The position numbers were made by a program, and so were the translations under genes. Shown piece by piece: positions 1,978 to 62,501 of a stretch of 64,000 nt of DNA (its first letter is position 1; each line of letters opens with the position of its first letter). Origin of the DNA: Dehalococcoidia bacterium (lineage in GTDB: Bacteria > Chloroflexota > Dehalococcoidia > Lucifugimonadales > UBA3495); the NCBI GenBank assembly GCA_965115825.1, contig OZ220464.1:1221306-1285305 (forward strand), read 5' to 3'. The notes under the pieces were generated by a model. That model saw only the letters and a program-made list of their open reading frames with translations. It had not been told where the DNA came from and did not search any database.

Positions 1978-2766
1978 ATGATCGATTTTTTGAAGACGGT
2001 TCGTTGGTCGGCGCCGGTGGCGGCGCTGGTTGCCGCTATGCTGGCGGTCGGCGTGAGCATGGGGGGCGGGACGGTTGCGGCGCAAGAGTCCGAGGTGAAA
2101 CCGGGCAGCCCGCCGACGGAAGCGCCGGTGATATACCGGAGCCACACCATCCCCACCGGCCTGGTTATCTTCTGGAAGCCTAAGGCCGGAGCCGCTATCG
2201 GCGACGTTGTCGACGGGGTAACGGGCTACCAGTTCGATATGCGCGTCATCGGTCAGAGCAATTGGTTGGGGGATGAGAAGCATCGCCTTAAGCATTTGGT
2301 CCGGGTATATGCCCACCACTATGCGAACCATGACGGGCCTTACGAATATCGCGTCAGGGCTTTCAACAGCCACGGCGACGGGCCTTGGTCCGAGGTTTAC
2401 CGGCGTCCGAGCGAGGGGAGTGTTGCGCCGGCGCCGGTGGCGCCGGCAGACGGCGTCCGTAAGGGGCGTGGCGTGAGTCGCCTGAAGGTGGTTCCTGTCG
2501 GGGAAGGTACGGCTACCGTGTCTTGGAAAGAGCCAAAGGGAGCTGCTGGCCCTTGCGTTCCAGGCGCAACCCCCCAGTACCGTTACCGGTACTGGAGTGG
2601 CAGTATGCCCAGGGGAGCCGAGGCATCGGATACCCCTCGGAACTCGGTTACGCTGAGCGGGTTGGATCCGGGCGTTGAGTACACCGTGGTGGTGCGGAGT
2701 TATTCTCCCACCTGCGATTCCTGGTCGAAGCCCCGCAAGGTGTCCTGGGTCCAGTCCGGGGGTTAG
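1978..2766 (+). CDS. secreted or membrane-anchored protein with two fibronectin type III-like domains
   Basis: Frame of track ORF 1864-2766. The chosen ATG at 1978 has GGAAGGAG 6 nt upstream. N-terminal hydrophobic signal (WSAPVAALVAAMLAVGV). Two FN3-like modules end in YEYRVRAFNSHGDGPWS and GVEYTVVVRSYS. Confidence 0.7.
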   Translation: MIDFLKTVRWSAPVAALVAAMLAVGVSMGGGTVAAQESEVKPGSPPTEAPVIYRSHTIPTGLVIFWKPKAGAAIGDVVDGVTGYQFDMRVIGQSNWLGDEKHRLKHLVRVYAHHYANHDGPYEYRVRAFNSHGDGPWSEVYRRPSEGSVAPAPVAPADGVRKGRGVSRLKVVPVGEGTATVSWKEPKGAAGPCVPGATPQYRYRYWSGSMPRGAEASDTPRNSVTLSGLDPGVEYTVVVRSYSPTCDSWSKPRKVSWVQSGG

Positions 2767-2798
2767 GTTCGTGGCAACCTGAGGGTTGCTTTGCCGAG

Positions 2799-2838
2799 AG
2801 GAGCTCCAGCAATTACGCCGGGGCTCCTGCTTTATTTC
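2799..2838 (+). terminator. rho-independent terminator candidate after the FN3 gene
   Basis: AGGAGCTCC (2799-2807) pairs with GGGGCTCCT (2820-2828): a 9-bp stem with one G-U pair and a 12-nt loop, followed by GCTTTATTTC. Confidence 0.55.
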
Positions 2839-3229
2839 GGGGAGGCGCAGGCTATTGATATTTCCCCCTTTCCACGGCTCTTTGGCAGGTTGCTTTTTCG
2901 CTCCAGGGGCGGTATTTCTCGTTGCGGAACGATGTTCCACAACGAGGATGGAAACTCATTTTCCTGATGGAGTTTATCGGGAGTTGGGACGGTTGTCGGG
3001 CTGCGCGGTTTTCGTGCTGTGGGCCCTGCGGATGGCCTGTTTGAGTTCCATGATGGGACCTACGAAGGACGTTCCGGCATGGTCGTAGGTCCAGATGTCC
3101 CGGTGGTAGCGCTTGATGCTGCCGCTGGGTCGGTTGTCGATCGTTACGGCGGCTTCGTTGCGTTCGGTTCGGAGGTATGATATTCGGGGCGGCAGCGGCA
3201 ATTTTGTCTCCTTTTCTCCTACTGGCTCG

Positions 3230-3255
3230 CTGGAATCCGAGTAGCGAAATCGCCT
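3230..3255. repeat. 26-bp inverted repeat, right copy
   Basis: CTGGAATCCGAGTAGCGAAATCGCCT is the exact reverse complement of 1769-1794. Confidence 0.95.
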
Positions 3256-3378
3256 ATTACGAGATGGCAACCCCTCCCGATGGAAGCGATTTGTGGTATC
3301 TTGTGGGGCGTTGCGCCGGCGTGAAGGGCGAGTATTGGCGCCGGCTTTACTTTGCGATTGTTTTGAGGTGGTTCCCTG

Positions 3379-4173
3379 ATGGCTTCCTACACTGAGCGGA
3401 TGGTTTCCGTTCGCAACGGTATGTTCAACGTGCAGGTGGCGGAGGGCGGCTCGGGGGAGCCGTTGCTTTACCTGCATGGGGCGGGCGGTTATGTTGGCTG
3501 GCCGGACTATTTGGAGCGGCTGGCACAGGACTATCACGTTTACGCTCCAGCGCATCCGGGGGTTGGAAAGTCCACGGGGTTGAATCATCTGGACGACCTT
3601 TGGGACTTGGCACAGTTTTTTGAGGAGTTGCTGGACGCTTTGGGAATTGAAAGATGCCATCTCATCGGGCATTCTTACGGGGGGTTCTGCGCCGCTGAGC
3701 TGGCCGCCCACCGGCCTGAGCGGATTGCGCGGCTGGCGCTGGTGAACTCGCTGGGGCTGTGGCTGGAGGAGAAGCCGGTGGCGGACTTTTTTATTCTGAC
3801 GCCGGACGAGAGGCGGGAGATGATGTGGCATGACCCGGAGAGTGAAGGGGCGCACGCTTACGTGGCGCAACCGACCGACCCGGAAGCGCGGTTGGAATAT
3901 ACTCTTGACCGAATTCAGACGCTGCAATCGGTGGCAAAGTTCACCTGGCCGATACCGGAGCGGGGCCTGGCCAAGCGCGCCCACCGCATAACGATGCCGA
4001 CGTTGATAGTCTGGGGCGCCTCCGACCGGGTGATTCCGCCGGAATACGGCGAAGCGTTCCGGGAGCTGCTGCCCAACGCTACGCTGACGGTGATACCGGA
4101 GTGCGGCCATATTCCGCAGCTGGAACGGCCTGAGGCTTTCTTTGAAAGCGTACTCGGCTTTCTGCACGACTGA
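3379..4173 (+). CDS. alpha/beta hydrolase (meta-cleavage-product hydrolase-like)
   Basis: 264 aa with HGAGG oxyanion region, GHSYGG nucleophile elbow and C-terminal CGHIPQLE His motif. Confidence 0.85.
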   Translation: MASYTERMVSVRNGMFNVQVAEGGSGEPLLYLHGAGGYVGWPDYLERLAQDYHVYAPAHPGVGKSTGLNHLDDLWDLAQFFEELLDALGIERCHLIGHSYGGFCAAELAAHRPERIARLALVNSLGLWLEEKPVADFFILTPDERREMMWHDPESEGAHAYVAQPTDPEARLEYTLDRIQTLQSVAKFTWPIPERGLAKRAHRITMPTLIVWGASDRVIPPEYGEAFRELLPNATLTVIPECGHIPQLERPEAFFESVLGFLHD

Positions 4174-4259
4174 TGAACCCAATCCGGGCTATGCGACGGG
4201 GATGACCGGCTGCGGGCGACAATAGCGCGTCAATAACCGACGAAGAGGAGAAAGGAACG

Positions 4260-4781
4260 ATGGCTACTCTCAACACCAACCTGCTGGACTCTTTCAACCG
4301 GCACATCAACGCCGAGTTTTACTCGTCCTACCTGTACCTGTCCATGTCAACCTATTGCGAGTCGGTGGACTTGCCGGGGTTCGCTCACTGGATGCGCATT
4401 CAGAGTCAGGAAGAGTACACGCACGCGACGAAGTTGATTGACTACGTAGAAGACCGGGACGCGCGGGTAACCCTGCTGCCGATTGAGCAGCCGCCGATTG
4501 AGTTTGACTCGGTGGAGGATGTGATGCGGCAGACGCTGGCCCACGAGCAGCACGTTACGAGCCTCATCAATGAACTTTACGAGGCGGCGACCGGCGCCGG
4601 GGACTATGCAACGCAGATTATGTTGCAGTGGTTCATCACCGAGCAGATTGAGGAGGAGAAGACGGCGCGGGACGTCATCGCGGCGCTGGAGATGGTGTCG
4701 GGGCGGAGCGACGCTTTGCTGCTGCTGGACCGGGACATGGGAGCCCGGCCGGCCGCTTCTCCGATTGCAACTACCGCCTAG
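4260..4781 (+). CDS. ftn: ferritin (non-haem Ftn type)
   Basis: 173 aa. Carries the INAEFYSSYLYLSM...QSQEEYTHATKLIDY ferroxidase-centre pattern, with GAGGAG upstream of the ATG. Confidence 0.9.
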   Translation: MATLNTNLLDSFNRHINAEFYSSYLYLSMSTYCESVDLPGFAHWMRIQSQEEYTHATKLIDYVEDRDARVTLLPIEQPPIEFDSVEDVMRQTLAHEQHVTSLINELYEAATGAGDYATQIMLQWFITEQIEEEKTARDVIAALEMVSGRSDALLLLDRDMGARPAASPIATTA

Positions 4782-58043: not shown

Positions 58044-58244
58044 ATGCCCGCCTGTCCCGTCTGCAAAACCGAAATCAATGAAAACAGCGCCCGCGCCACC
58101 ACCGGCCAGACTATGCACGGCGCCAACGAGGTTGACCCCAACGCCGGCACCCGCAGCTTCTATAACGGCGAATGGTACTATTTCTGCACCTTACAGTGCC
58201 GCACCAGGTTTCTGACCACCCCCAACACCTACATCGCAAGCTAA
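58044..58244 (+). CDS. YHS/TRASH-domain small metal-binding protein
   Basis: 66 aa with CPVC at the N-terminus and YNGEWYYFCTLQCRTRF. Confidence 0.65.
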   Translation: MPACPVCKTEINENSARATTGQTMHGANEVDPNAGTRSFYNGEWYYFCTLQCRTRFLTTPNTYIAS

Positions 58245-58295: not shown

Positions 58296-59381
58296 ATGCA
58301 GCACATCGGCCTGGTAATGGAATGCGACTACCGCGAAGGCCGCACCCAGGATGAAGCTTTTGCGGAAGCCTTCGCTACTGCTCGTCTGGCCGACGAAACC
58401 GGCATCGACGGCGTTTGGCTGGCCGAGCGGCACTTCGCCGCGCCACGCACGCCCACCGATCCCGGCGGAGCCGGCATCCCGTCCGTTTCGTCGGTTCCGC
58501 TGCTGATGGCCGGCATCATCGCCGCCCGCACCGAGCGCGTCCGCGTGGGAACCGGCGTCAGCGTCCTGCCGTTGTCCCATCCCATCCGACTGGCCGAAGA
58601 AGCCGCCACCGTGGACAACATCTCCCAGGGGCGCCTGGACTTCGGCATTGGACGCAGCAGCTTTCCCCGTTCCTACCAGGGCTACGACGTGCCTTATGAC
58701 GAAAGTCGGGAGCTCTTTTCCGAAGCCCTGGAGATCATCCTCAAAGCCTGGAACAACTATCGCTTTGACCATCACGGCCATTATTACAATATGGATGACG
58801 TGGTGGTTACGCCGCGCCCCTACCAGCAGCCGCACCCGCCCATCCGTATCGCCGCCAACTCTATTGACACCTTCGGCATCGTAGGGCAGCTGGGCTTTCC
58901 ACTGGTCACCGGGGTGCGCGGCCAGGGCCTGGCGCAAGTCGCAAACAACCTGAAACTCTACCGCGCCGCCGTCTCCGAAAACGGCCACGACGTGGATGAC
59001 GTGTACGTGCGAATGCCTATCTACGTGGCGGAGTCCATGGCGCAGGTTCGCGCCGACACTGAGGAAAGCACTATGCGCGCCTTCCATCGCACCGCCGATA
59101 CCTACATCAGGACCGTGCAGGCCGAGGGCGAAAACGCATCGGCGGAACGCCGTCAGCGGGCCGAGCAGTTGCTCAACACCACCTACGACGACCTGCTGGT
59201 GGACCGGGTAGCCTACGGCTCGCCACCGGAGGTCGCCCAGCGGCTGACGGAAATCCGCGACGAGCTTGGCCTCACCGGCGTGATAATGGAGCCGAACCTG
59301 GGCGGCACAGTGCCGGCGGAACGGGTTCAGAACTCCATCCGCCTCTACGCCGAAGAGGTAGCGCCGGCGCTACGGGGGTAA
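58296..59381 (+). CDS. LLM-class flavin/F420-dependent oxidoreductase
   Basis: The ATG follows GAGGAGG. Carries GIDGVWLAERHF, GTGVSVLPLSHP and GRLDFGIGR blocks. Confidence 0.85.
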   Translation: MQHIGLVMECDYREGRTQDEAFAEAFATARLADETGIDGVWLAERHFAAPRTPTDPGGAGIPSVSSVPLLMAGIIAARTERVRVGTGVSVLPLSHPIRLAEEAATVDNISQGRLDFGIGRSSFPRSYQGYDVPYDESRELFSEALEIILKAWNNYRFDHHGHYYNMDDVVVTPRPYQQPHPPIRIAANSIDTFGIVGQLGFPLVTGVRGQGLAQVANNLKLYRAAVSENGHDVDDVYVRMPIYVAESMAQVRADTEESTMRAFHRTADTYIRTVQAEGENASAERRQRAEQLLNTTYDDLLVDRVAYGSPPEVAQRLTEIRDELGLTGVIMEPNLGGTVPAERVQNSIRLYAEEVAPALRG

Positions 59382-59434
59382 AGCAACCGAAGGGATAGGA
59401 GATGGGCCTCATCTTCGGGTGGGGCCTTACGCTT

Positions 59435-60088
59435 TCAGGCCGGCCATGGAATGCGGCGCTTTTTGTCGACTACATCCAACAGCTTTTTGCTTGGATTGGC
59501 GGGGGCCATCAGATAAACCTGTACGCCCTTATTCTGTATCTCTTTGATAATGCCGGCAAAGTCGCCGTCCTTGGTCATGAGCACCACGGCCTTTCTTTTA
59601 GCGTCGGATTGGCAATAATCTCTGATAGCCTTCGTGATGTCCACGTCTCGATTCCCGATACCTTCGTCAACGCTCCATTGATTAGACTCGAAGATGTCCA
59701 AGTTCGCTCCTGAGCTGACAAAGGCGCGAAACCGACGCCTCTTTGCATTCGGAAAGCGATCCTCCACTTCCTTGCGCAGTGACTTGTTGAATGCGGCGAA
59801 CTTTATTTTTGACACACCATTGTTTTGGACATCGAAGAAAATAGCCACCTGTTCCCTGGTTGCTTTCTTGAAGAAGTTCACCGAGGCGCCGTTTTCTATT
59901 GCAATGGAGTGAATCGCCGCCAGAGATTCAGCATCGGGTTTGGTCGCTCCCTTCTCCCATCGTGAGAGTGTGTTGGCCGGTACGCCCAGCAGCTCGGCCA
60001 TCTTGGTTTGCTTCATTTTCAGACGAGTCCGCAACACGACAATGCTGCCGAAGTCGAACTCGTAACGTCCAGGCTTGACTGGCGCCAT
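59435..60088 (-). CDS. XRE-type HTH domain fused to a NYN/LabA-like (PIN-related) nuclease domain
   Basis: 217 aa. The HTH reads MKQTKMAELLGVPANTLSRWEKG. The NYN-like part reads VAIFFDVQN...NRDVDITKAIRDY...VVLMTKDGDFAGIIKEIQNKGVQVYLMA. GGAGGGA lies upstream. AT-richer than the flanks. Confidence 0.75.
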   Translation of the reverse strand: MAPVKPGRYEFDFGSIVVLRTRLKMKQTKMAELLGVPANTLSRWEKGATKPDAESLAAIHSIAIENGASVNFFKKATREQVAIFFDVQNNGVSKIKFAAFNKSLRKEVEDRFPNAKRRRFRAFVSSGANLDIFESNQWSVDEGIGNRDVDITKAIRDYCQSDAKRKAVVLMTKDGDFAGIIKEIQNKGVQVYLMAPANPSKKLLDVVDKKRRIPWPA

Positions 60089-60169
60089 GGTTAGCTTCCC
60101 TCCGTCAGGGTGCCTAAATTGCCGTTCAGTCCGATTGCAGACGATGCCCGGTTGCGGCGGGGGTGTGTT

Positions 60170-60307
60170 TTACTTCCTTGGCGGGTTATTGCCCCGGCCT
60201 CCGCCGGAAGGCCTCCCGGTAGTGCTGGGCGCGTTGCCCGGCCGTCCTTTACTCCCTCCTTTTCCTCCACCGCCGCCCCGCTTCGCACGCATTGCTAGTC
60301 TCTCCAT
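60170..60307 (-). CDS. candidate 45-aa Gly/Arg/Lys-rich micro-protein
   Basis: MERLAMRAKRGGGGGKGGSKGRPGNAPSTTGRPSGGGRGNNPPRK. GAAGGAGG lies 7 nt upstream of the ATG. It ends 81 nt before the HTH-NYN start on the same strand. The low-complexity sequence makes coding status uncertain. Confidence 0.3.
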   Translation of the reverse strand: MERLAMRAKRGGGGGKGGSKGRPGNAPSTTGRPSGGGRGNNPPRK

Positions 60308-60391
60308 GGCGTCGCCTCCTTCGTGAGTTTGTGCCGCTTTTTGAGCCGTTGTTACGCCGCAACTGGGCACTGCCTGCAATCGGTAGCGCCC

Positions 60392-60423
60392 AGTTTATCC
60401 CAGTTCTGTTGATTTGTCAACAG
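60392..60423 (-). promoter_or_regulatory. sigma70-type promoter with its -35 box embedded in an 18-bp palindrome (operator candidate)
   Basis: The minus strand reads CTGTTGACAAATCAACAG (60423-60406), a perfect 7-bp inverted repeat with a 4-nt spacer. TTGACA (60420-15), 17-nt spacer, TAAACT (60397-92). It lies about 85 nt upstream of the micro-ORF ATG. Confidence 0.45.
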
Positions 60424-60473
60424 ATGCGCGGATTTCAAAGCCAAGTCACCCGTAGCATCCTCATGACGTTGAC

Positions 60474-60890
60474 TTACAGCCCCATCGCCTCCAATCCCAC
60501 CCGCGACAGGTCTTCGTCGGCTTGGCCGCTGGGATAGCCGCCTACGCCGATGCCGCCCAGGATTACGCCATCCTGCATAATCACCAAGCCGCCCTGGCCG
60601 TGAGTCAGGCGCGGGTCGCCCAGGTCGGCAATGTTGCGGCCCTGCGCGTGGAGGCCGGCGGCGTGCTCGCCGGAGTTGCGGCCCATCACCGCCGAGGTGT
60701 ATGCCTTGCGCAGCGCATGGCGGCGGCTGAATATCCGCAGGTTGTCCATCGTCAGATAGGCCAGCAGCTCCCCGCCGGCGTCGCCGATGGCCATGGCCAC
60801 CGGCGCGTCGGGGGTTTCGTTGGCTTTGGCCAGCATTGCATCAATTGCCGCCGTAACCTGTTCGGTAGTCAGCGTGGGTTTCGTTGCCAT
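60474..60890 (-). CDS. GlcG/HbpS-like haem-binding (DUF336) protein
   Basis: 138 aa with GGLVIMQDGVILGGIGVGGYPSGQADE, typical of the DUF336 C-terminus. Confidence 0.8.
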   Translation of the reverse strand: MATKPTLTTEQVTAAIDAMLAKANETPDAPVAMAIGDAGGELLAYLTMDNLRIFSRRHALRKAYTSAVMGRNSGEHAAGLHAQGRNIADLGDPRLTHGQGGLVIMQDGVILGGIGVGGYPSGQADEDLSRVGLEAMGL

Positions 60891-61271
60891 TGGTCAAACC
60901 TCCTGGAATCGTCGGGCGAAATACCTTCCGATGATACCACGCTGGGCCGGCTCGAGCCGGCAAGCTCGGGCGCAGGCGGGATGACGGCGTCGAGCAGCCG
61001 GATTTCCAAAATCAAAGAATACGAGGGGGCAAAGGTCGGAGAGCACGATTTCGCCGCTGTGGCGGTCATCTCAAACCGCTCGGTCACCGGGTGATTGCAG
61101 AGATTGTGCACAAGGCGCGCAACGGAAACGGCGCTATGGGATTTCTGCTTTCGTACCGCGTCGGCATTAGTCCTGTACGGCGCGTCTCGCAATGTATAAT
61201 TTGTCCCCTATTCAGCCGAAATTACCCCAAGGTATGGCATGATTACATACCGGCGACATAGAGGAGACAAT

Positions 61272-62501
61272 ATGCAACCCCTGTCCGATTTGCGCGTTCT
61301 GGCCGTTACCGTGTTCCTCGCCGGGCCTTTTTTGAGTATGACGCTGGCCCGGCTGGGCGCCGAGGTCATCAAGGTGGAGATACCGGGCCGAGGCGACCCG
61401 GTGCGCGGCAACGGCCCCTTCGCCGGGCCCGACGGCATTCACTCCCGGCAGATTTCCGATAAGCACATCGCCACCCGTTTCCTCAAGCGCAGCCAGGGCG
61501 TCAAGAGCGTTACGCTGAACCTGCGCACTGAAAGGGGCCGGCAGCTGTTCCTGGAAATGGCCGGACAATCCGACATCGTGCTGGAAAACCTCGCCCCCGG
61601 CGCTATGACCCGGCTGGGCCTGGGCTACCATGACGTGGCCGCGGTGAATCCCGGCGTCATCTACGCCAGCATCTCCGGCTACGGACAAACCGGCCCTTAT
61701 TCCCAGCAGCCCGCCCACGACCCGCAAATCCAGGGGATGAGCGGCCTTATGGACATCAACGGCGAACCCGACGGCCCGCCGACGCGCGTCGGTTTCTACA
61801 TCGGCGACCTGGTAACGCCAATGTTCGCCGCCACGGCCATTCTGGCCGCCCTGCGGGAAAAAGAACGCACCGGCCAGGGCGCGCACCTTGACGTTTCCAT
61901 GATGGACACCCTCACGTCGCTTATGCTAATGGAAAACTTGGAAGAGGATATCGCCGCCGGCGTTCCGCTGCGCGCCGGCAACAACAGCCGCAGCGGCCCC
62001 ACCGGCCAATACCAGGCCAGCGACGGCGCAGTCATCATCACCGCGGCCAGCGACGACCAGTGGCGTCGCCTCTGCAACGCCATCGGCGCGCCGGAACTGA
62101 TCGACGACGAGCGATTTGCCCGCTATCAGGTTCGTTCCGAAAACGCCGCCGCCGCCCGCGCCCAAGTCCAAGCGCGCATCGGCGAAATGACGCGCGCCCA
62201 GACGCTGGAATGTCTCTCCGACGGCGATGTGCCCTGCGCGCCCGTACGCACCGTGCCGGAGATACTGGCCGACCCGCATTTCCGCGAGCGCGGCGCACTC
62301 CGACCCATGCGCAGCGCCGCGTTCAATGGCGAAGTGGAGCAACAAGTGACAGCCGGCTTCCCCGTCCTGTTTGACGGCCAGCCTCTGCCCGATGTGCCCG
62401 GCGCGCCGGCCATGGGTCAGCATAACGCGACGACGCTCAGCGTACTGTGCGGCGTGGATGAGGAGGAGCTGGAACGCCTGCGAAACGAGGGCGTGGTGTA
62501 G
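61272..62501 (+). CDS. family III CoA-transferase (CaiB/BaiF-like)
   Basis: The ATG follows GAGGAG. Carries LSDLRVLAVTVFLAGPF...LGAEVIKVE and ENLAPG blocks. Confidence 0.9.
   Translation: MQPLSDLRVLAVTVFLAGPFLSMTLARLGAEVIKVEIPGRGDPVRGNGPFAGPDGIHSRQISDKHIATRFLKRSQGVKSVTLNLRTERGRQLFLEMAGQSDIVLENLAPGAMTRLGLGYHDVAAVNPGVIYASISGYGQTGPYSQQPAHDPQIQGMSGLMDINGEPDGPPTRVGFYIGDLVTPMFAATAILAALREKERTGQGAHLDVSMMDTLTSLMLMENLEEDIAAGVPLRAGNNSRSGPTGQYQASDGAVIITAASDDQWRRLCNAIGAPELIDDERFARYQVRSENAAAARAQVQARIGEMTRAQTLECLSDGDVPCAPVRTVPEILADPHFRERGALRPMRSAAFNGEVEQQVTAGFPVLFDGQPLPDVPGAPAMGQHNATTLSVLCGVDEEELERLRNEGVV

Follow-up and report, generated by a model that had tools for sequence, protein, structure and literature searches.

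The XRE helix-turn-helix (HTH) and NYN families, to which the two halves of the protein considered here belong, are known. The XRE-type regulator MqsA of the Escherichia coli MqsRA system recognizes the site ACCT(N)3AGGT; the palindromes that it binds are short-spaced and lie in the promoter of its own gene. Nucleases of the Regnase type target the mRNA that encodes them. Long processing or stabilising RNA helices include the RNase III stems that flank rRNAs or occur in the early mRNAs of phages, as well as 5'-terminal stabiliser stems. According to a survey of the PIN superfamily, the fusion described as common for NYN domains is that with OST-HTH/LOTUS domains, the bacterial LabA-like NYN proteins are listed as being of unknown function, and HTH-PIN fusions are discussed as toxin-antitoxin (TA)-like (PMC5499597). 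No description of an XRE-NYN architecture was found in that survey or in the other literature searched, where the matches for such a fusion were only general PIN/NYN surveys. Such a fusion protein, XRE-HTH::NYN (hereinafter, HTH-NYN), is encoded on the minus strand of a 64-kb stretch of contig OZ220464.1 (assembly GCA_965115825.1) of a Dehalococcoidia bacterium (Chloroflexota); this whole stretch is referred to below as the window.

An earlier note on this DNA, made from its letters, pointed to a promoter with an inverted repeat, a short open reading frame (micro-ORF), the HTH-NYN gene, and a sample of low G+C content, and all four were found on the minus strand at the positions it gave. On a slight balance of probability, the locus represents an autoregulated bicistronic repressor-nuclease unit of the flexible genome with a conflict-related role; its architecture is far more certain than its biological role. 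Unless stated otherwise, the comparative counts given below rest on 60 related Dehalococcoidia HTH-NYN loci, and L-numbers designate the loci of relatives.

The HTH-NYN gene (59435..60088, minus strand) encodes a protein of 217 amino acids (aa) and starts, as had been noted earlier, 81 nt after the stop codon of the micro-ORF (60088-59435 in the direction of transcription). It is preceded by the Shine-Dalgarno sequence GGAGGG (60098..60103, minus strand), of which GGAGG is conserved in the alignment. Pfam analysis placed both halves of the protein above the family cut-offs: HTH_3 was matched at residues 19-59 (7e-9, 36 bits against a cut-off of 23), making the protein a member of the XRE group, and NYN (PF01936) at residues 81-209 (1.5e-9, 38.9 bits against 24.2). 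The HTH domain, of the MqsA/P22 c2-like type, extends over residues of about 14-65 (59894..60049, minus strand), and the NYN domain, which is LabA/MARF1-like and PIN-like, over residues of about 80-210 (59459..59851, minus strand). An AlphaFold2 (AF2) model built from 33 homologues had a mean predicted local distance difference test (pLDDT) score of 89.5. In the Foldseek program, the C-terminal half of the model matched the NYN domain of MARF1 (6fdl/5yaa, E 2.4e-6, TM-score 0.77) and also the LabA-like protein VPA0982 (2qip); the model and these matches together assign a PIN-like alpha/beta fold to this half of the protein. The structural matches of the N-terminal half were P22 c2, ClgR, DdrO, HigA2, and MqsA, which corresponds to a lambda-repressor-like fold. 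The family profile aligned to the MARF1 NYN domain and to the MqsA HTH domain at about 6e-6 each.

The best match of the HTH domain was MqsA (Pfam MqsA_antitoxin 8e-5, TIGR03830 1.7e-7, PDB 3fmy 6e-6). However, this alignment is limited to the HTH and lies under the curated cut-offs of both families (PF15731, 23.2 against 30 bits; TIGR03830, 31.1 against 61.8 bits), so the protein does not belong to either. In contrast to MqsA, it carries the HTH at the N-terminus and has no CxxCG zinc-binding toxin-binding domain, and its nuclease is fused in cis, whereas in MqsRA the toxin is a separate RelE-like protein. The NYN half resembles the LabA-like/MARF1-type domains (PF01936, COG1432) in fold, Pfam score, and aligned acidic residues; it differs from MARF1 in having D-x-Q-N after strand 1 in place of D-I-E-N, and from this group as a whole in being fused to an XRE HTH, in being confined to Chloroflexota, and in the tandem NYN domains of some members. 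The latter are proteins of 397-412 aa in which the HTH is followed by two tandem NYN domains (L025 3001-4230, L032 3001-4194, and L046 3001-4239).

The window protein and all of its 28 closest homologues have the four acidic residues D86, D148, D174, and D176, of which D86 and D174 align with Asp residues of MARF1 in the profile alignment. Thus, the two-domain assignment proposed earlier holds, and the loss of catalytic Asp residues, named in the earlier note as an observation that would speak against it, is not seen in this protein. Since the four canonical acidic residues are kept in the sub-clade of the window, the NYN domain is probably an active metal-dependent ribonuclease. In the HTH, all 97 homologues share the recognition-helix residues N39, T40, S42, R43, W44, E45, and G47 without exception; mean identity across the homologues is 66% for the HTH domain and 33% for the NYN domain.

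The promoter is made up of the -35 hexamer TTGACA (60415..60420, minus strand), whose position is kept in relatives, a 17-nt spacer, and the -10 hexamer TAAACT (60392..60397, minus strand). This pair of hexamers had been recognized earlier, and it agrees with the sigma-70 consensus in 10 of 12 positions. A promoter scan of 2.1 kb detected 2 promoter-like sites compared with 0.7 +/- 0.8 in shuffled sequences; upstream of both cistrons TTGACA/TAAACT is the sole sigma-70-like site, and no internal promoter-like site was detected. From the spacing to the -10 box alone, transcription is predicted to start at about 60384-60387. No intrinsic terminator was found in the region by the terminator scan.

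The -35 box is embedded in the inverted repeat CTGTTGACAAATCAACAG (CTGTTGA-CAAA-TCAACAG; 60406..60423, minus strand). This 18-mer, previously described as a perfect palindrome, is indeed present, but it consists of two 7-bp arms, CTGTTGA and TCAACAG (8 bp if the flanking T/A is counted), around the non-palindromic 4-bp centre CAAA. It is identical in L001 and L047 and near-identical in L059-L061. Comparison of promoters explains its composition: it includes the right half of one operator box, the -35 box, and the left half of a second operator box. In most loci, an ACAGnnCTGT dyad adjoins the -35 box (ACAGAnCTGT|TGACA), and a second dyad follows 18 or 20 nt downstream, immediately before the -10 box. 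In the window, box 1 is GCGCATCTGT (60420..60429, minus strand), degenerate relative to the consensus ACAGnnCTGT and recognized from the aligned promoters of eight close loci and from the box statistics of the 60 loci; box 2 is ACAGAACTGG (60400..60409, minus strand; position -321 in the box scan), located in the promoter spacer and having one mismatch. Upstream of the gene, 39 of 60 loci have at least one ACAGnnCTGT box that deviates from the consensus in at most one position, compared with 4 of 60 size-matched control regions, and double boxes spaced by 18 or 20 nt occur in 14 loci and in none of the 60 controls. The composite pattern CTGTTGAYAN5ACAG has a single occurrence in the 64-kb window, where 0.03 would be expected by chance.

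Two short dyads that lie in the protein's own promoter and overlap RNA polymerase contact sites are a feature shared with MqsA, P22 c2, and the 434 repressor, and autorepression is therefore to be expected; the operator sequence itself, ACAGnnCTGT, differs from the MqsA site. The finding that the 18-mer is formed by the inner halves of two conserved boxes further supports this. Thus, the autoregulation through the palindrome that was proposed earlier has strong comparative support: the dyad over the -35 box and the spacer is conserved, and the HTH-NYN protein would regulate its own promoter through it. A regulon inside the window was considered and rejected, since ACAGNNCTGT occurs there only once elsewhere (53998), which is the chance level, and the composite promoter pattern is unique; no second operator site was found in the 64 kb.

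The next conserved element is a helix predicted in the leader mRNA. Its 5' arm (60355..60384, minus strand) starts within a few nucleotides of the predicted transcription start, and its 3' arm (60130..60159, minus strand) begins 10 nt past the stop codon of the micro-ORF; both were delimited by the inverted repeat, by RNAalifold, and by pair counts. The arms bracket the micro-ORF in all eight loci that contain it, and at the DNA level they form an inverted repeat of 29 nt that is 86% complementary. RNAalifold predicted the helix from these eight loci. According to pair counting, 94% of the cells are paired across its 27 pairs, 10 of which have changed on both sides; in 500 shuffles, neither the pairing score nor the covariation score of the real alignment was attained, and registers slid along the sequence were 27-40% paired. 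About 17% of the helix cells are G-U pairs, which on the opposite strand would be A-C mismatches, and this indicates constraint at the level of the sense RNA. Both the minimum free energy and the centroid folds of the window leader contain the helix. It resembles RNase III stems and 5'-terminal stabiliser stems in its length (about 27 bp), in pairing the extreme 5' end with sequence past the enclosed cistron, and in its compensatory substitutions. Unlike them, it is located in the leader of a regulator gene, where it surrounds a gene for a microprotein; the search of Rfam 15 with the region 59000-61300 gave no match at E<=1 for the leader or the helix.

The chromosomal surroundings of the gene were compared among relatives. 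The order ACAD - YHS - LLM / HTH-NYN / HbpS/GlcG - CoA-transferase is common to them (ACAD, acyl-CoA dehydrogenase). Between the acyl-CoA dehydrogenase and LLM genes of the window, a 66-aa YHS/TRASH-type small protein is encoded (58044-58244, plus strand), which shows 84-100% identity in all syntenic relatives. The gene content of the interval from LLM to HbpS/GlcG (59381-60474 in the window) varies across the loci compared (L001-L003, L047, L058-L061, L067, and L084). The immediate upstream neighbour of the HTH-NYN gene is HbpS in the window, L059, and L061; a HepT-like RNase toxin gene in L002, L003, L047, and L058, with a candidate similar ORF in L060; and genes of an RDD protein and a transposase, together with unknown genes, in L001. 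In L067 and L084, the HTH-NYN gene is missing despite the same LLM...HbpS synteny (LLM proteins 91% and 85% identical, respectively), and an alpha/beta hydrolase gene, in L084 together with a HepT-like gene, stands in its place. The LLM-HbpS interval is a variable hotspot, in which the HTH-NYN gene behaves as an accessory and fast-evolving gene.

The rate of this evolution is seen from comparison with the flanks. In the syntenic relatives, the flanking proteins are 85-100% identical to those of the window, whereas the HTH-NYN proteins are 52-83% identical. By the Nei-Gojobori method, the flanking genes have synonymous divergence (dS) of 0.3-1.1, mostly 0.5-0.8, and non-synonymous divergence (dN) of 0.03-0.09; the corresponding values are 0.8-1.9 and 0.07-0.18 for the HTH domain, and 1.0 to saturation and 0.2-0.5 for the NYN domain. 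The closest relative shows a mosaic pattern. In L001, the LLM and YHS genes, the leader, and the micro-ORF are identical to those of the window, and the HTH-NYN gene (4001-4726) differs by a 72-nt in-frame indel and two mostly non-synonymous patches. The patches comprise residues 1-20 (88% nucleotide identity) and 75-112 (82%), corresponding to 60029-60088 and 59752-59866 (minus strand), and the remainder is 99.4-100% identical. No compared locus was closer than L001 to the divergent patches of the window as a possible donor. The AF2 model contains strands at residues 9-11 and 73-75, and the two patches of the window allele may thus be spatially adjacent.

The G+C content of the HTH-NYN gene is 51.7% against 61.8% for the whole window. 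The sample 59761-59820 contains exactly 28 G+C of 60, as was reported earlier; the LLM and GlcG/HbpS genes, previously put at about 70%, have 63.9% and 66.4%, i.e., about 65%. The gene lies below its flanks in G+C content at 54 of 60 loci, with a mean deficit of 7 points. Low G+C content is therefore a trait of the whole HTH-NYN family and is not evidence for recent acquisition in the window, and recent horizontal transfer deduced from it alone was rejected. The view of the earlier note that the module was horizontally acquired is not supported, given this, the same chromosomal position of the gene in relatives, and the lack of relatives in the phage, plasmid, and IMG/VR collections. Its suggestion of a TA-like or abortive-infection-like module fared better: the accessory status, fast evolution, and HepT neighbours of the gene (in L001, a transposase) make such a role plausible.

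The protein search detected 98 homologues of HTH-NYN, and the named ones are all from Chloroflexota. A scan of the GTDB species representatives revealed 56 loci, of which 54 belong to metagenome-assembled genomes of Dehalococcoidia/Chloroflexota, typically one per genome, and the remaining two are weak HTH-only matches in Proteobacteria. The gene resembles those of fused TA and abortive-infection proteins and of three-component HTH/PIN systems: a nuclease is joined to a DNA-binding module for autoregulation, and the gene is accessory, evolves fast, and has TA genes in its surroundings. It differs from them in lacking a match to a PADLOC system, in not being found on phages or plasmids, and in being a single-copy gene of one class. 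In PADLOC-DB 2.0, no model of a known anti-phage defence system matched the fusion protein over most of its length; the matches were limited to the HTH (RmrA, control protein, and CapH), with the addition of one 45-residue NYN fragment (1.7e-5). In NCBIfam and PHROGs, the protein was likewise matched only over the HTH.

Several observations weigh against a conflict-related repressor-nuclease. The family is essentially single-copy, is restricted to one bacterial class, and has an invariant recognition helix, which is unusual for a mobile TA or defence gene; full-length relatives are absent from the phage, plasmid, and IMG/VR collections searched, and no neutralising partner is evident. As for catalysis, at least one of the four acidic residues is lost in 45 of 97 family members, all four being kept in 52, and hence catalysis is not universally required. 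In the window allele, F85 and V87, which flank the catalytic D86, are unique among the 97 homologues, and the window nuclease might therefore be impaired; this allele also has the shortest HTH-NYN linker in the family, 24 residues below its nearest relative. In addition, the operator boxes of the window are partly degenerate (three mismatches in box 1 and one in box 2), with the inner dyad CTGTTGA/TCAACAG intact, and the overall folding energy of the leader is unexceptional (z = -1.27).

Some of these observations would fit another explanation, according to which HTH-NYN is a lineage-specific housekeeping transcription factor with a wider regulon, and the NYN domain is not a toxin but a non-catalytic sensor, RNA-binding, or oligomerisation module, much as LabA-like proteins have a part in regulation. 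The contrast between the fully invariant recognition helix and the NYN domain with its average identity of 33% agrees with this, as do the single copy in each of about 55 Dehalococcoidia species representatives, the missing acidic residues, and the lack of phage, plasmid, and viral relatives. The bacterial LabA-like NYN group, whose function is unknown, has a variable active site (PMC5499597), which points in the same direction. On the other hand, a housekeeping factor would hardly be expected to show presence/absence polymorphism among close relatives, far greater divergence than its flanks with a mosaic pattern within the same species, and a G+C content persistently under that of the flanks. 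The lack of a second operator site in the 64-kb window and the retention of the four acidic residues throughout the sub-clade of the window also argue against it. We consider this explanation rather unlikely, and the conflict-related unit is retained as the preferred reading.

The first cistron of this unit is the micro-ORF (60170..60307, minus strand), which encodes the 45-aa microprotein MERLAMRAKRGGGGGKGGSKGRPGNAPSTTGRPSGGGRGNNPPRK. Its Shine-Dalgarno sequence GAAGGAGG (60315..60322, minus strand) stands 7 nt before the start codon, and (A)AGGAGG is kept in seven of eight loci. The ATG is located 84 nt after the -10 box, in agreement with the earlier observation of a Gly/Arg-rich ORF with a strong ribosome-binding site about 85 nt downstream. 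The eight loci with the micro-ORF are the window, L001, L002, L047, and L058-L061, and in all of them it lies 78-81 nt upstream of the HTH-NYN start. Among its 46 codons, variable sites number 11, 13, and 36 at codon positions 1, 2, and 3, respectively, and the differing codon pairs include 423 synonymous and 235 non-synonymous ones. The third-position bias and the synonymous excess indicate that the micro-ORF is a protein-coding gene under purifying selection. It is thus not merely a translated leader, one of the options listed previously, and its interpretation as a non-coding or purely regulatory upstream ORF was rejected on the codon-position pattern. Conservation of its frame, proposed as a check, was confirmed in these eight loci, but the other 52 of the 60 HTH-NYN loci lack it. 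Gene callers overlooked the micro-ORF: the protein collection does not contain its exact sequence, and no gene is called in the corresponding intergenic gaps of L059 and L061. In another frame, a 65-aa ORF (60091-60288, minus strand), open also in L002 and L058, overlaps both the micro-ORF and the spacer; it probably reflects the G-rich, stop-poor character of the sequence and does not represent a second gene.

One more explanation is that the 29-nt inverted repeats around the micro-ORF are terminal inverted repeats of a small DNA cassette inserted in the leader and not a functional RNA helix. The repeats occur in one sub-clade only, exactly between a promoter and a gene that adjoin in most other loci, and their complementarity of 86% is seen at the DNA level. 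However, the 10 compensatory pairs and the many G-U pairs maintain pairing, neither the repeat nor the micro-ORF has a second copy in the window, and other members of the microprotein family have no flanking repeats; this explanation is considered very unlikely. An insertion origin of the repeats and their present function in RNA are not mutually exclusive.

The leader helix is apparently undescribed, and so is the widespread family to which the microprotein belongs. The members of this family (proteins P0099-P0359; loci L062-L066 and L147-L158) are 26-80 aa long and carry the almost invariant C-terminal motif NAPSTTGKPSGGGRGNNPPK, NAPSTTG(K/N/R)PSGGGRGNNPP(K/R), sometimes in tandem. The window ORF contains NAPSTTGRPSGGGRGNNPP, which satisfies the pattern N-[AG]-P-S-[TK]-T-G-x-P-S-G-x-x-R-G-N-N-x-P (about 20 aa, C-terminal). 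A profile search with the micro-ORF peptides found 739 proteins at E<=10, and an exhaustive search of 1.84 billion representatives gave 173 cluster representatives at E<=1e-3. The named carriers are Chloroflexi, Acidovorax, Lautropia, and Bacteroidia, supplemented by metagenomes and phage contigs. Gene callers often miss or over-extend genes of this family. None of the Pfam, NCBIfam, PHROG, and PADLOC models matches the microprotein, and the literature searched for its motif contained nothing but one unrelated peptide list. Outside the HTH-NYN loci, the microprotein gene stands alone (L062-L066) or before a gene of a TPR-like repeat protein (L147-L149) and never beside a NYN gene; neither operator boxes upstream of the stand-alone genes in other genomes nor a bracketing helix in the other contexts was found. 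In L147-L149 (about 2500-3450), a conserved trio is formed by a thiamine pyrophosphate (TPP)-dependent enzyme, the microprotein, and a TPR-like repeat protein of 212-233 aa ending in ...WAVAAQMLHQSH. The possibility that these 212-233-aa genes are diverged HTH-NYN genes was rejected, their products being TPR-like repeat proteins.

The motif was also found in nine IMG/VR contigs, and in five of them it is the C-terminal tail of a domain of about 70 aa that ends in ...FATGSVKGN (L150-L154, about 2250-2630; P0278), L153 containing two copies. A single-sequence AF2 model of this domain shows a beta-grasp topology with low confidence (pLDDT 64). Nearly all Foldseek matches are ubiquitin, NEDD8, ThiS, MoaD, and SAMP (E 1e-3 to 1e-2), and Pfam gives SAMP2 alone (E 0.15). 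These data suggest a fusion of a ubiquitin-like domain and the microprotein in phage/viral contigs. In the bacterial member P0213 (67 aa), an N-terminal seed-maturation-protein (LEA-like) repeat was identified (Pfam SMP, 22.5 bits against a cut-off of 22), which hints at a connection with hydrophilins and stress proteins.

Another small hydrophilic ORF (50-62 aa, ...NPNN...DNRSNQ(L/M)NPN...SSRQG...) occupies the same position, between the CTGTTGACA promoter and the HTH-NYN gene, in five loci: L006 (2828-2980), L010 (2804-2992), L026 (777-944), L033 (2747-2929), and L034 (2773-2940). The homologue search with this type (DNRSNQLNPN) found only 5 close relatives; apparently, this is an independent case of a tiny disordered protein under the HTH-NYN promoter. 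Small ORFs of any kind precede the HTH-NYN gene in 13 of 60 loci, and most loci are monocistronic. The conserved adjacent gene pair of a type II TA system is thus not observed. A classical two-gene TA pair, in which the microprotein would be an antitoxin or cofactor neutralising the NYN nuclease, can be dismissed as extremely improbable: it draws on the place of the microprotein upstream of the nuclease, co-transcribed from an autoregulated promoter, and on the unrelated small ORF in the same position, but only 8 of 60 loci have the micro-ORF, the microprotein family exists alone or before the TPR protein in other phyla and phage contigs without a NYN partner, the matches to TA and defence models are confined to the HTH, and a highly conserved microprotein beside a hypervariable nuclease is the opposite of a co-evolving pair. 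The dedicated antitoxin or cofactor suggested in the earlier note is accordingly unlikely, and, given its distribution among the loci and its independent contexts elsewhere, the microprotein is most readily viewed as captured cargo of the autoregulated promoter and not as a dedicated partner.

In the conflict-related unit favoured here, the events could proceed as follows. The HTH-NYN protein would most likely bind the ACAGnnCTGT dyads as a dimer or tetramer and repress its own transcription, by analogy with MqsA and other XRE autorepressors. The mRNA would start with a leader of roughly 300 nt, the first 30 nt or so of which would pair with about 30 nt just past the first cistron. The resulting 27-bp helix would enclose this cistron, encoding the 45-aa Gly/Arg/Asn-rich and probably disordered microprotein, and would probably either protect the 5' end or be processed in a double-strand-specific (RNase III-type) manner, so that an abundant microprotein message would be uncoupled from the repressor-nuclease message. 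Alternatively, by analogy with Regnase-type nucleases, the helix might be the target of the NYN nuclease. The second cistron would provide the XRE-HTH::NYN protein with its probably active RNase. The most likely role of this protein, as we infer, is that of a single-polypeptide regulator-nuclease module in genetic conflict, TA-like or abortive-infection-like.

A more far-reaching version of this scheme is possible, though distinctly doubtful. It regards HTH-NYN as a new single-chain repressor-ribonuclease conflict module, i.e., a fused TA or an abortive-infection sensor, in which the hypervariable N-terminal arm, linker, and first NYN strand would sense a trigger. The leader helix would then be a processing or cleavage site setting the ratio of nuclease to the co-transcribed microprotein. 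The cross-phylum NAPSTTGKPSGGGRGNNPPK family, whose motif in phages follows a beta-grasp domain of the ubiquitin-like type, would act on a conserved and specific target in the cell.

Dehalococcoidia are bacteria of environmental importance, most of which have not been cultured, and their regulators have received almost no study. The invariant XRE recognition helix paired with ACAGnnCTGT dyads throughout the class represents a testable regulator-operator pair, in which a nuclease domain of as yet unassigned function in bacteria is attached to the HTH. The cistron-enclosing 27-bp leader helix, supported by covariation, is likewise a testable RNA element, and an unannotated microprotein family with a strikingly conserved 20-residue motif extends over Chloroflexota, Betaproteobacteria, Bacteroidia, and phage contigs. 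If the nuclease half is indeed a conflict or immunity effector, a compact one-protein architecture would be added to such systems.

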